Positions 19,209 through 63,291 of a DNA stretch of 64,000 nucleotides are shown here, piece by piece. The translations under genes and the position numbers were made by a program. The number at the start of each line of letters is the position of its first letter. Within the stretch, counting starts at the first letter, position 1. Below the pieces are notes generated by a model that was not told the DNA's origin, ran no database searches, and saw only the letters and a list, made by a program, of their open reading frames with translations. The DNA is from Vulcanimicrobiota bacterium (GTDB lineage: Bacteria; Vulcanimicrobiota; Vulcanimicrobiia; Eremiobacterales; Eremiobacteraceae), in assembly GCA_963812135.1 (NCBI GenBank), contig CAWETU010000001.1, positions 576,001-640,000 on the forward strand. The letters run 5' to 3'.

Positions 19209-19508
19209 ATGCTGAGCCCATCTGACACCATCCTCATCTTCGTCGTCGCGCTGCTGCTGTTCGGGCCGGAGCACCTGCCCAAGATCGCGCGTCAGCTCGG
19301 CGATGCGATGCGTCACGTCCAGAACACGACCAACTCGTTCATGGCGGAGATGGATCGCGCGGCCGCCGCGGCCGATCTCAAAGCGCACACGACATGGGAG
19401 CCGCCGCCAGCCGAAGATTGGCAAACGCCGACGTCCACGCTGACAGTCGAACCGGCGCACGAGTTGCCCGAGCCGGAAGTTCCCGAGCCGCCGAAGACGG
19501 TCGAATAA
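19209..19508 (+). CDS. tatA: Twin-arginine translocase TatA/TatB family subunit
   Basis: 'ALLLFGPEHLPKIARQLG'. Confidence 0.88.
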   Translation: MLSPSDTILIFVVALLLFGPEHLPKIARQLGDAMRHVQNTTNSFMAEMDRAAAAADLKAHTTWEPPPAEDWQTPTSTLTVEPAHELPEPEVPEPPKTVE

Positions 19509-19521
19509 ATCCGACCGCTAC
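19498..19521 (-). repeat. REP-like palindrome family A, overlapping the tatA stop
   Basis: GTAG-CGGTCGGAT-TT-ATTCGACCG. Confidence 0.8.
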
Positions 19522-36204: not shown

Positions 36205-36298
36205 TGGCGGGAGAAGATAGGAATCGAACCTACCGGTCCCCTTGCGAAGACCTTACGGTTTTGAAGACCGCCCAGAGCACCAGCCCCGTGCTTCTCCC
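36205..36298 (-). tRNA. selC: tRNA-Sec (anticodon UCA)
   Basis: 8-bp acceptor stem GGGAGAAG/CTTCTCCC, G discriminator + CCA, 6-bp D stem, CTTCAAA loop, long variable arm, 5-bp T stem. Confidence 0.96.
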
Positions 36299-44231: not shown

Positions 44232-46115
44232 CTACGGCGTCTTCGGATGCGCGACCTTGCGCAGCCGGCGCAGATCCCCGTCGCGTAAGGTCACGCCGAT
44301 GCCGTCGAAATACTCCATGAGCGGCAGCGCGTACTTGCGCGACGTCCCGAAGGCGTCGCGCAGCTGCGCCATGGTGGCACCGCTGCCGTCCTTCAGCACG
44401 GTCGCGAGCACGGTGCGCGCGTGCTGCAACTGCGCGCGCCGGTAGAGGTCGTCGCCGACGCGTACGAGCGCGCCGGTCGCCAACAGCGTGTCGATGGCCT
44501 CGACAAGGCCCTCGATACGCGCGCTCGTCGCGTGCTTCGCGACCGCGTCATAGGAATGCGGAACCAACGGGCTCGCGGGATCGTCGCGCAGCGCATCGAC
44601 GAAAAACGCACGCTGTTGCGCGGTCAGCGTCGGGGCCACGCCGGGAAGATGCCACCATCTGCCGGTCGACGCGATCCGGCCGTCGTCGTGCCACGCCGCG
44701 AGCAGACGCACCATCAGCGCTTCTGGTATTGCGAATTCTGCGGCGATTTCAGGCGCGTGTGCGCCGAGCGTCCAGGGCGCCTTACGATGCCGCTGTTCGA
44801 GAAAAAGTGCAAGCCGCTCGAAACCCGCGTCGAACGCCGCGCGCGCCACGTACGATTGCGGCTTTTGGATAACGACCGCGTCTCCCGTCGCAACGAGAGC
44901 ATCGATCTGGGCTTGTGCGCGATCGACGACGACGTTGAGCGCAGCAGCGATCTGGGTCGTTTGAAGCGGCACCAGGCCCGACGCCGACAACACTTCAAGC
45001 GCACCTGTAGCGGTCGAATCTATTCGACCGAGACCCAATGCAGTGGTCGAATCTATTCGACCGAGAGCGACCGCTCCGCCGAGCAGATCCTTCGGACTCA
45101 TGCGGCGCACGATGAGGCGGCTGCCCGGATAGAAGACGGTCGGGCGCGACAACAACAAACGCGCGCGCACGGTCTCCGCCTGCGCCGGCGCTGTCCGCTC
45201 GAACACCAGCGTGCCTGGGATCTCGTCCGAACCGATGTGCGCGCGGACCGGCGTGCGCCGCTTCAACATGCGCAGCGCTTGCGGCAGCGGGGTGAAGTCG
45301 ACGAGCAGCTCGTTCGCGGGCGCGAATTCGCGCGGTGCCACCAGCGTCTCGCCGCGCCGGATCGCGCCGACTTCTATGCCCGGCAGGTTCACCGCCACGC
45401 GCGCGCCGCCCGTGGCGGATTCGACTTTGCGGCCGAACGTCTGGATACTGCGCGCGCGCACCTCGACGCCGCTCGGCTGCAGCAGCAGCGCGTCGCCGGT
45501 CTTGATCGTGCCTTGCATGAGCGTGCCCGTCACGATCGTGCCATGTCCGGGTAGCGCGAAGACCCGATCGACCGGCAGATACGCGGGTGCGTCCGGATCG
45601 CGCGGCGGCAACGCATGCAGCGCCGTGCGAATCGCATCCTTGAGTTCGGCGATGCCTTCGCCCGTCAGGCTCGACACCGCGACGATCGGCGCATCCGCAG
45701 CAACGGTCCCAGCCACGGCATCGCGCGCGAGCGCGCTCGCGATCTCGAGGCCGTCGGCATCGACGAGGTCCCGTTTGGTCAGCACGATGATCGCGCGGCG
45801 CACGTTGAGCAGATCGAGGATACGCAAGTGGTCGAATGTCTGTGCGCGCGGACCTTCGCCCGCGTCGATGACGAGCAGCAGCAGCTCCATGCCCGCGGCT
45901 CCCGCCAGCATGTTATGGAGAAAGCGCTCGTGTCCGGGCACGTCGATGATGCCGGCTTCGACGCCGTCGTCGAATCGCAGCGGCGCAAAGCCGAGATCGA
46001 GCGTCATGCCGCGCTCGCGTTCCTCGATGAGCCGGTCCGGGTCGTGGCCGGTCAGCGCGATGACGAGCGAGCTCTTGCCGTGGTCGACGTGGCCGGCGGT
46101 GCCGATGATGTGCAT
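44232..46115 (-). CDS. selB: Selenocysteine-specific elongation factor
   Basis: GTAGHVDHGKS, DVPGHE, TKRD; C-terminal SRKYA.PL.EY.D. Confidence 0.97.
   Translation of the reverse strand: MHIIGTAGHVDHGKSSLVIALTGHDPDRLIEERERGMTLDLGFAPLRFDDGVEAGIIDVPGHERFLHNMLAGAAGMELLLLVIDAGEGPRAQTFDHLRILDLLNVRRAIIVLTKRDLVDADGLEIASALARDAVAGTVAADAPIVAVSSLTGEGIAELKDAIRTALHALPPRDPDAPAYLPVDRVFALPGHGTIVTGTLMQGTIKTGDALLLQPSGVEVRARSIQTFGRKVESATGGARVAVNLPGIEVGAIRRGETLVAPREFAPANELLVDFTPLPQALRMLKRRTPVRAHIGSDEIPGTLVFERTAPAQAETVRARLLLSRPTVFYPGSRLIVRRMSPKDLLGGAVALGRIDSTTALGLGRIDSTATGALEVLSASGLVPLQTTQIAAALNVVVDRAQAQIDALVATGDAVVIQKPQSYVARAAFDAGFERLALFLEQRHRKAPWTLGAHAPEIAAEFAIPEALMVRLLAAWHDDGRIASTGRWWHLPGVAPTLTAQQRAFFVDALRDDPASPLVPHSYDAVAKHATSARIEGLVEAIDTLLATGALVRVGDDLYRRAQLQHARTVLATVLKDGSGATMAQLRDAFGTSRKYALPLMEYFDGIGVTLRDGDLRRLRKVAHPKTP
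45006..45063 (+). repeat. Tandem pair of REP-like family A palindromes inside selB
   Basis: TGTAG-CGGTCGAATCTATTCGACCG and TGCAG-TGGTCGAATCTATTCGACCG, period 33 nt. Confidence 0.88.
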
Positions 46116-46144: not shown

Positions 46145-47509
46145 CTAGGGCGCGGGCGCGGATATGTCGAGCGCGCCTGCCAGCGCGGCGGCGAGCGCAT
46201 CGAGGTCAGATTCGCGCACCGCGCGCAGGTCGGCGACGAAATGGTCATCTTCGACGCGGCCGATCACCGGCGGTTGCGCGCGACGCAGACGCGCCGCAAA
46301 CGCGTCTGGTCCGTCCTCGGTGCGCACGCACACGCCCGCCGATGCGATCTCGACATCGGGCAGCGTGCCGCCGCCGGTCGTCGCCGCGGTGCGCACGACG
46401 CTGACTTTCGCCGCCGGCCGCTGCGCTTTGACCGCGGCGCAGACGCGTTCTGCTCTCGCCATCAGCTCTGCCTGTGTCGTCTTAAGCATCGCGAACAACG
46501 GGATATCGTCAAGCGTTCCCTCGACGTACGAGGAGAGCGTCGCGCTCAATGCCGCGAGCGTCATCTTGTCCACGCGCAGCGCGCGCAGCAGCGGATTGCG
46601 TTTGAGCGCGCCGATCAGATCGGCTCGGCCTGCGATGATGCCGCACTGGGGACCGCCGAGCAATTTGTCGCCTGACACCGTCACGAGATCGAGGCCCGCG
46701 GCGATCGTCTGCGCGAGCGTCGGCTCGGACGGCAGTCCGAACCCGGTCAGGTCGACGAGCGCGCCCGTGCCCAGGTCCTCGAACGAGATGATTTCGAGCT
46801 CGCGCGCGAGCGCCGCCAGCATCGCCGCCGGAACCGTGGCGGTGAAGCCGCTGACTCGGTAATTGCTCGGATGCGTGCGCATGAAAAGCGCGGTGTTGGC
46901 GTTCCACGCATCGCGATAGTCGCGGGGATAGGTCTTGTTGGTCGTGCCGACTTCCACCAAGACCGCGCCACTCTTGGCGAGCACGTCAGGCAGCCGGAAA
47001 CCGCCGCCGATCTCGATCAACTCGCCGCGGCTAACGACGACTTCGCGTCCGCGCGCGAAGGTGTCCAACACGAGCAGCACTGCGGCGGCGCAGTTGTTGA
47101 CGACGAGCGTCGCCTGCGCGCCGGAGACCTCGCGCAAGAGCGACGAGATGCGATCGTAGCGGCTGCCGCGATCGCCCGTCGCGATGTCGTATTCCAGATT
47201 GGTGTAACCCGCGCCGAGCTCGCGGACGGCGTCGAGCGCCTTCTCGGAGAGCGGCGACCGGCCGAAATTGGTGTGCAGCAAGACACCGGTCGCATTGATG
47301 ACGCCGACCAGGCCCTCGGCATGGGCGTGCGAGAGCCGCTCCAAAACGCCGGCGCGCAACGATTCGAACGACGCGCCGGCCGCAGCGGAGCGCGCCGCGT
47401 CGAGCACCGCTTGGACGTGCGCGCGTATAGCGCCGCGTCCGAGGAGCGGCGCATACGTGGCGATCGCGGGGTCGGTGGTGAAACGATGGACGGCGGGTAT
47501 GTCGCGCAT
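46145..47509 (-). CDS. selA: L-seryl-tRNA(Sec) selenium transferase
   Basis: INATGV.LHTN.GR, SRGELIEIGG.FR.PD, SGDKLLGGPQ.G. Confidence 0.97.
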   Translation of the reverse strand: MRDIPAVHRFTTDPAIATYAPLLGRGAIRAHVQAVLDAARSAAAGASFESLRAGVLERLSHAHAEGLVGVINATGVLLHTNFGRSPLSEKALDAVRELGAGYTNLEYDIATGDRGSRYDRISSLLREVSGAQATLVVNNCAAAVLLVLDTFARGREVVVSRGELIEIGGGFRLPDVLAKSGAVLVEVGTTNKTYPRDYRDAWNANTALFMRTHPSNYRVSGFTATVPAAMLAALARELEIISFEDLGTGALVDLTGFGLPSEPTLAQTIAAGLDLVTVSGDKLLGGPQCGIIAGRADLIGALKRNPLLRALRVDKMTLAALSATLSSYVEGTLDDIPLFAMLKTTQAELMARAERVCAAVKAQRPAAKVSVVRTAATTGGGTLPDVEIASAGVCVRTEDGPDAFAARLRRAQPPVIGRVEDDHFVADLRAVRESDLDALAAALAGALDISAPAP

Positions 47510-61282: not shown

Positions 61283-62071
61283 TCAGACCAGCTGGCGGTC
61301 GCGCAGCGCGCCGACCAGCGTGATGGCGCGCGCCTCAGCGTCCGGACCGTCGACGATTTCGTTGGCTCGTTTCTTGCGGTTCGACTCGAGCGGTCCATCG
61401 GCTACGCCCGTACTAGGTATTGTAGAGATCGAATTCATGCGACCGTCCGACACGTCGGCGAGGGTGCGTTCCTCGACCGGTTTCTTCGAAGCGCGCATTA
61501 AGAGAATTGGTGAGATCGTGCGCGTCGCAATCCCGTAGGGAACAGCGGCGACGACGAGCGGCCTCGGCGCGTTCGATCGGACAAGCGATGCGCCATCGAT
61601 CTGAGTCACCCGCAGGTCAGCGCCTTCGATCTCCAATCCCACGACGTCCGCGCGTAGTCCGGCGCCGAGCGTCGAGGAGAGATATCCAGCGACAGCGCCG
61701 CTGCCATATGACGTCGTCTGTGGTCCGCACACCACGACATCTGCGCCCCCGTCCTTGGCGATCGCCGCGGCAAGCGCGCCTGCGACACCTGCTTCGTCAG
61801 CGGTCTCGAGCAACGGGTCGCTGATCGCGATGAGGCGCTGCGCGCCGAACACGGCAGCTTCGCGCAACGCCGCAGATGCGCCTGACCCTGCGGAATAGAC
61901 GTCGAATGTGGCACCTGAAGATTTCGCGAGTTGCGCCGCGAGTTCGAGCGCGTTGCGATCGGCGGGATTGAGAACTGGCTCAGCGTCTTGCAGATCGAGC
62001 AGCTGGCGAAAGCGGTCCCATTTCACCTTCTCGGGATTTGGGACCGCCGCGACGCAGACCGCGATGCGCAC
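61283..62071 (-). CDS. etfB: Electron transfer flavoprotein beta subunit, divergent
   Basis: M.IAVCV..VP, LNPAD..ALE.A, ALREA..FGA. Confidence 0.85.
   Translation of the reverse strand: MRIAVCVAAVPNPEKVKWDRFRQLLDLQDAEPVLNPADRNALELAAQLAKSSGATFDVYSAGSGASAALREAAVFGAQRLIAISDPLLETADEAGVAGALAAAIAKDGGADVVVCGPQTTSYGSGAVAGYLSSTLGAGLRADVVGLEIEGADLRVTQIDGASLVRSNAPRPLVVAAVPYGIATRTISPILLMRASKKPVEERTLADVSDGRMNSISTIPSTGVADGPLESNRKKRANEIVDGPDAEARAITLVGALRDRQLV
61421..61445 (+). repeat. Degenerate REP-like family A copy inside etfB
   Basis: TGTAG-AGATCGAAT-TC-ATGCGACCG; 4 differences from the copy at 63267. Confidence 0.65.
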
Positions 62072-63266: not shown

Positions 63267-63291
63267 TGTAGCGGTCGAATTTATTCGACCG
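63267..63291 (+). repeat. REP-like palindrome family A, intergenic, perfect stem
   Basis: TGTAG-CGGTCGAAT-TT-ATTCGACCG. Confidence 0.85.

Follow-up and report, generated by a model that had tools for sequence, protein, structure and literature searches.

Two tandem REP elements, lying in frame in selB, probably encode the interdomain spacer of SelB in an Eremiobacteraceae bacterium

Introduction

How can a short palindrome of the mobile type come to be read in frame, twice over, within a translation factor, and what becomes of the sequence that stood there? The question is raised by selB in a 64,000-nt stretch of DNA (the window) from genome G000, an Eremiobacteraceae assembly (GCA_963812135.1, contig CAWETU010000001.1, positions 576,001 to 640,000). 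A sequence-only reading of the window had taken the palindrome for a GTAG-type REP of the kind mobilised by RAYT transposases, inserted twice into the SelB linker. Our main reading, to which we give a probability of roughly 0.78, is that selB contains two tandem GTAG-tagged REPs in frame, that these code for the flexible spacer predicted between D3 and WHD1, that they likely replaced an older spacer of the same length, and that their product is likely a tether indifferent to its sequence.

Results

SelB and the selenocysteine pathway

Three features of the Sec pathway lie in the window.

44232-46115, minus strand: selB, encoding an intact selenocysteine-specific elongation factor, SelB, of 627 aa (TIGR00475, Foldseek)
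46145-47509, minus strand: selA, adjoining selB (from context)
36205-36298, minus strand: tRNA-Sec (from context)

SelB scores 301.7 bits against the TIGR00475 profile (cut-off 242), and the top Foldseek matches of its structure model are 5lzb_z and 4zu9, with agreement over the whole fold. An unbroken frame runs through the EF-Tu-like domains D1-D3 and the winged-helix C-terminal half. The Sec pathway is complete in this genome (selA, selB, tRNA-Sec, selD). Outside the window the genome carries selD and a molybdopterin enzyme whose frame contains a single TGA, so that SelB has a likely use.

The repeats in selB and in the window

The repeat copies in the window, and the part of SelB that they encode, are listed here.

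45007-45030, plus strand: REP copy with an intact GTAG tag and an 8-bp hairpin, antisense to selB, encoding residues 363-370 (exact match)
45031-45039, no strand assigned: 9-nt spacer between the two selB copies, approximately residues 359-362 (from sequence)
45040-45063, plus strand: REP copy with its tag decayed to GCAG-T and a 7-bp hairpin, encoding residues 352-358 (2 mismatches)
45006-45065, minus strand: REP-derived spacer that lies between SelB's N- and C-terminal halves (N-C spacer), residues 351-370 (structure model, alignment)
63268-63291, plus strand: consensus REP between genes (pattern match, 1 mismatch)
19498-19521, minus strand: REP that overlaps a predicted plus-strand gene at its 3′ end (pattern match)
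61422-61445, plus strand: degenerate REP within the gene for ETF-beta (61283-62071, minus strand), in the same reading frame (comparison with relatives)

The two selB copies, 24-nt units, stand 33 nt apart, as the sequence-only reading had it, and lie head-to-tail on the same strand; by chance no REP copy is expected in the window (0 in 100 shuffles). Translation gives LGRIDSTTALG and LGRIDSTATGA directly after LLGGAVAL, again as first read, and the repeat does sit between the EF-Tu-like and winged-helix halves (structure model; PMC4605307). The near-identical lone element noted between genes is the copy at 63268, and the orthologous gap in a congener carries a REP in the opposite orientation. 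A GTAG tag had been claimed for both selB copies; it stands for the one at 45007 and fails for the one at 45040. Both fold as hairpins (z -3.5 and -4.1), and the whole region folds stably as single-stranded DNA. From the open frame, the repeat in SelB is presumably translated. Near the window end, at about 63460, an enoyl-CoA hydratase-like gene shows a frame change that is probably a one-base assembly error.

That the palindrome had been inserted twice is a part of the earlier reading that is not supported. The two copies share 21 identical nt, flank included, together with a variant absent from every other site, and this suggests local copying between tandem units, by duplication or conversion, instead of two arrivals. 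The peptide variant of the intact copy occurs nowhere else in the genome, and relatives carry different second copies. The 9 nt between the copies are nearly unconserved, with only 1 of 28 positions in close SelBs identical to the window SelB.

Could the doubled peptide be a product of assembly, or of chance? Apparent single-base frameshifts do occur elsewhere, and contigs of run X1 break at the repeat. However, seven other assemblies encode the two peptides, and contig 17 of run X2, from another sample, runs through 44757-45297 without a gap and with 10 substitutions, bridging both copies, so that a duplication made by assembly is ruled out; together with the absence of chance copies in shuffled sequence, this leaves the explanation with a negligible probability. 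RNA run X11 yielded no contig across the spacer and is uninformative on transcription.

The repeat family across the genome and genus

At up to 3 mismatches to the consensus, G000 holds 176 copies, whilst the reversed-pattern control gave 0. By the calls of a codon-model gene caller made for this analysis, 93 copies are intergenic, 41 lie over gene ends, where they often supply a TAG stop, and 42 fall inside predicted ORFs, in a genome that is 87% coding. SelB is no special target; when 4 mismatches are allowed, 26 of 197 copies lie deep in predicted genes, 18 of them in the antisense, GRINSTAT-type frame. The family has the marks of a GTAG REP: a palindrome of 20-40 nt that folds as a hairpin (stems of 7-9 bp, z -3.5 to -5.6), a 5′ GTAG tag (GTAG 158/194, GGAG 15/194), high and dispersed copy number, a mainly extragenic or gene-end position and restriction to a lineage. 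As to the last, 127-169 matches were found in each of four of the seven genomes of the genus and at most 2 in the other 37 of the 41 genomes searched. A wider scan of genome collections returned at least 48 loci among the matches listed, all in one assembly, and is silent on wider distribution.

Close pairs are nearly always on the same strand (13/14 in G000 and 17/18 in the comparison genome G005; inverted 1/14 and 1/18). Most REPs are thus not inverted doublets, as REPINs or BIMEs would be, and the selB pair itself is head-to-tail. In both genomes half elements, made of the tag and left arm, are often found immediately upstream of a complete element that points the same way, as if copies had been remade beside older ones. 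As regards the G000 assembly, contigs C1 (at its end) and C5 (at its start) share an overlap of 2.9 kb; contigs C3 and C4 are 82-99% variants of C1 at 1.93-1.95 Mb and probably represent strain haplotypes; and C1 at 2.29-2.37 Mb is lower in GC, rich in accessory genes and the most strongly skewed in base composition.

RAYT genes in the family and in this genome

Genes for Y1 transposases (PF01797) are present in 18 of 32 genomes of the family, many of them with inverted GTAG/GGAG hairpins on their flanks, of which some are nearly identical to the window REP. All four that were tested pass the RAYT cut-off (NF047646), and one matches the TnpA-REP structure 4er8. RAYT genes of the family (loci L031-L057) are flanked by at least 10 distinct classes of GTAG/GGAG hairpin, and one such class has 248-480 matches in genomes of genus g4.

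The proposed association with RAYT thus holds for the sister hairpins and fails for the window genome itself. PF01797 finds no RAYT in G000 (98% complete), tblastn with 20 family RAYTs gave three weak matches that were unconvincing on inspection, a family HMM run over six frames of G000 and G005 found none, and an NF047646 search of five genomes (G000, G002, G003, G005 and G006) returned no RAYT. G000 therefore lacks the arrangement that defines a REP-RAYT system (REPtron), a RAYT flanked by the same REP, and genome G001 does have a RAYT, but with a different flanking hairpin. The window repeat is accordingly described as a GTAG REP whose mover we infer from sister classes. RAYT-less REP families have been described (in parts of PMC3733652 and PMC3686654). 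In vitro, TnpA-REP cuts single-stranded REP on the 5′ or the 3′ side of the hairpin and also joins strands, and models for the enzyme provide for tandem amplification and for integration at REPs already present or close to them (parts of PMC8266576 and PMC3333891). Such chemistry would fit arrival, doubling and renewal, each step in the window lineage being read by analogy.

The SelB spacer

In the structure model of SelB (mean pLDDT 87) the last strand of D3 covers residues 344-350 and a helix residues 370-379. Between them pLDDT falls below 50 at 355-369, which may partly reflect poor alignment depth there, and the repeats map to this predicted low-confidence loop. Across the class the first part of the N-C spacer is a highly variable loop. 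The double repeat peptide occurs in 8 of 74 SelB proteins, namely the window SelB and seven from other assemblies at 91-95% identity; close relatives carry the source name Candidatus Eremiobacteraceae. The repeat is confined to SelBs at least 91% identical to the window SelB. None of the 29 relatives at 77% identity or less has the window REP in its spacer, relatives without the DNA repeat also lack the peptide, and the sampled SelBs include none between 76% and 91%. With the contig evidence above, neither of the two refutations named in the sequence-only reading came about.

A net insertion in the linker, as first read, is not what the lengths show. Between fixed anchors the spacer has 32 aa here, 31-32 in the clade and 31-37 in six congeners without the repeat. 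In 99 other selB loci the median is 32 aa and the range 26-55, in a survey of which 3 of 100 rows (L004, L007, L060) took their anchor from an incorrect frame and 2 loci were unanchored; for L004 and L007 the correct lengths are those of a separate congener alignment. Three genomes that are unpublished, G010, G013 and G016, contribute to counts alone (41 genomes, 32 family genomes, relatives' spacers, 99 loci), and no key claim rests on them. The repeats account for 20 spacer residues, and without them about 12 aa would be left, below the range of 26-55. Because 20 residues are repeat-derived at unchanged length, about as much of an older spacer is likely gone, and the repeat would stand in for it. 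Among the SelBs compared we found no allele with one copy, nor one with the insertion and the old spacer together.

Two REPs might instead have been simply added to a spacer that had already been shortened in the clade ancestor. Single REPs do add 5-6 aa at two other genes, ETF-beta and ValRS, and the SelBs sampled include no ancestor of the clade between 76% and 91% identity. However, addition would have to start from a spacer some 12 aa long, and the shortest of the 99 other loci has 26 and the six congeners have 31-37; we consider it unlikely. The length gains themselves were compared with outgroups at ETF-beta and ValRS only. The ETF-beta loop has 22 aa with the REP and 17 aa in most relatives without it, a net gain of 5 aa, and the in-frame REP is common to many relatives down to about 67% identity. 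In ValRS the REP adds 6 aa relative to the closest relative (91% identity). The ValRS loop holds an antisense REP in G000 (C1:1570911-1573553) and a sense REP in G005 (L218:16-498) at equal loop length; among 78 sequences the repeat peptide is found in 5, in sense in G005 and antisense in four others, and is absent from the closest relative. Pairwise length differences at REP sites between G000 and G005 run from -12 to +24 aa, a set in which some pairs are weak or paralogous and at least one protein has low-complexity repeats, and which is of qualitative use only. One further G005 gene carries a double REP at net -1 aa, nearly identical to the SelB case. Replacement is thus not a general rule for REPs in genes, since ETF-beta, ValRS and other sites gain length.

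Alternatively, the repeat may be kept for a function of its own, either a hairpin that adjusts the stability of selB mRNA or the pausing of ribosomes, or a peptide that contacts tRNA-Sec or the ribosome. It is retained in all 8 clade SelBs, conservation of its residues (67-80%) exceeds that of the four lying in between, and the region folds stably, as single-stranded DNA. Yet this conservation is below that of the rest of the protein (93.6%) and most variants follow the genome-wide pool: in the seven relatives, 10 of 14 repeat peptides match variants found elsewhere in the window genome. Moreover, 98 of the 99 other selB loci are without a clear REP match in the spacer, and many proteins unrelated to SelB contain this peptide too. 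We therefore find a dedicated function very improbable, and favour replacement by a sequence-indifferent tether.

The exception among the other loci is that of G009, from another genus (L013). In its selB spacer stands a 26-nt REP of the genome's own type, a perfect copy in sense orientation, identical to the hairpins flanking its RAYT (L054), and as far as sequence goes this is an independent match on a permissive loop. P0061 shows similar repeat peptides, by eye. A decayed REP suspected by eye in the G001 SelB spacer was not significant (p 0.17).

Renewal of tags and strand polarity

G000 and G005 were compared over 2118 reciprocal best hits at 79% identity. Genes with an internal REP in both genomes number 15 (0.8 expected), and gene gaps with a REP in both 31 (3.6 expected). 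Among these 46 shared sites the orientation is the same at 40 and opposite at 6. At 25 of the 40 the tag is GTAG in G000 and GGAG in G005, with 1 the reverse (sign test 8e-7, sites treated as independent). The tag at orthologous sites, coding ones included (Thr to Pro), follows the majority tag of each genome, and REP copies therefore appear to have been renewed in place, by conversion or by re-insertion at hot spots. The title of a 1988 review reportedly raises gene conversion for REPs. Partial replacement of REP variants has been proposed earlier (in part of PMC3686654).

On C1 of G000, 82 of 90 tagged REPs between 1.2 and 2.37 Mb lie on one strand (46/82 elsewhere), as do 86 of 86 on the syntenic G005 contigs C3 and C4 (44/73 elsewhere), the boundary having been chosen after seeing G000 and coinciding with contig ends in G005. 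The stretch is about 1.15 Mb long, with density highest near 1.8-2.3 Mb, and the bias holds whichever strand the neighbouring genes are on and persists across the inferred terminus. A third genome has no such bias (10 versus 8 in 18 mapped sites). A replichore cause was rejected, because the polarity does not reverse where gene-strand skew places the terminus (~1.54 Mb); no dif-like motif was found. We also rejected an assembly artefact, as tag and loop direction agree and the 8 opposite-strand sites hold no mangled relics. A literature search on REPs with strand bias and replichore gave one paper, PMC3971601.

A broader reading, which we put forward tentatively and hold to be possible but doubtful, is that in this genus REPs overwrite loops in place, that existing copies, coding ones among them, are renewed to the species consensus so that the repeat sets the residues (GRINSTAT versus GRINSTAP), and that this renewal keeps a fixed strand polarity across some 40% of the chromosome, whatever the gene direction or the inferred replichore. 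If so, the SelB spacer would be one product of a process that rewrites the proteome, with no RAYT detectable today.

Discussion

For SelB we propose the following course of events. A RAYT-type enzyme that cuts and joins single strands, since lost or undetected, would have placed a REP in an already hypervariable loop in the clade ancestor, and the gene would have survived because the antisense GRINSTAT-type frame has no stop. Local duplication may then have given the second copy, and the old spacer may have been lost in the same event or trimmed later by selection on length. Since then, sequence exchange would have continued between the two copies or between them and the REP pool of the genome.

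A spacer that is rigid and helical in Aquifex can, it seems, be built wholly from mobile-repeat sequence, which would mark a tolerant site in a translation factor. Two sequenced congeners offer dozens of orthologous sites that are filled, refilled or flipped, making REP spread and uniformity testable by comparison, and the strand polarity is a constraint that any mechanism of REP spread must explain. A search of mostly non-subscription literature found no paper on Eremiobacter with REPs, or on REPIN/RAYT with concerted evolution, and nothing in the SelB literature found bears on spacer repeats.

The position of the spacer between D3 and WHD1 is the same as in SelB of Aquifex (4zu9) and E. coli (5lzb). 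In Aquifex it consists of two helices that fix WHD1 on D3, according to the relevant part of PMC4605307, whereas here its first part is a loop that varies across the class and is REP-derived in this clade. The spacer is thus not always a passive tether (PMC4605307).

Rickettsia palindromic elements, the precedent first proposed, are likewise palindromic and read in frame in working genes (parts of PMC3733652 and PMC3184786). Elements of the RPE-1 type, however, measure about 105-146 bp (relevant part of PMC3184786), whereas the window unit has 24 nt and a GTAG tag and brings no net gain to SelB; it is therefore not of this class. With the RAYT/TnpA-REP systems (as treated in parts of PMC3116915, PMC3333891, PMC8266576 and PMC3686654) it shares near-perfect GTAG hairpins like those of group 3 REPs, and the family RAYTs are likewise hairpin-flanked. 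Unlike REPINs and BIMEs, copies in the window genome are single or head-to-tail, with no cognate RAYT found and, along part of the chromosome, a strong preference for one strand; persistence of REPs after RAYT loss has been described (part of PMC3686654).

A closer precedent than Rickettsia is that of Di Nocera et al. (2013, PMC3733652), who, in the relevant sections, describe intragenic GTAG REPs, single or grouped, that encode 20-30 aa and are proposed to lie in linkers. Those REPs too are short hairpins with a 5′ GTAG tag, in high copy and mostly outside genes, that often supply a TAG stop and sometimes lack a RAYT. A term search of four supplementary files of that paper gave no entry for SelB, selenocysteine or elongation factor. 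Its relevant sections treat intragenic REPs as insertions, and net length and turnover at orthologous sites are not covered there. The SelB spacer is thus a clear new case of known behaviour, of which the length-neutral replacement, the renewal to consensus and the strand polarity are the less ordinary aspects.
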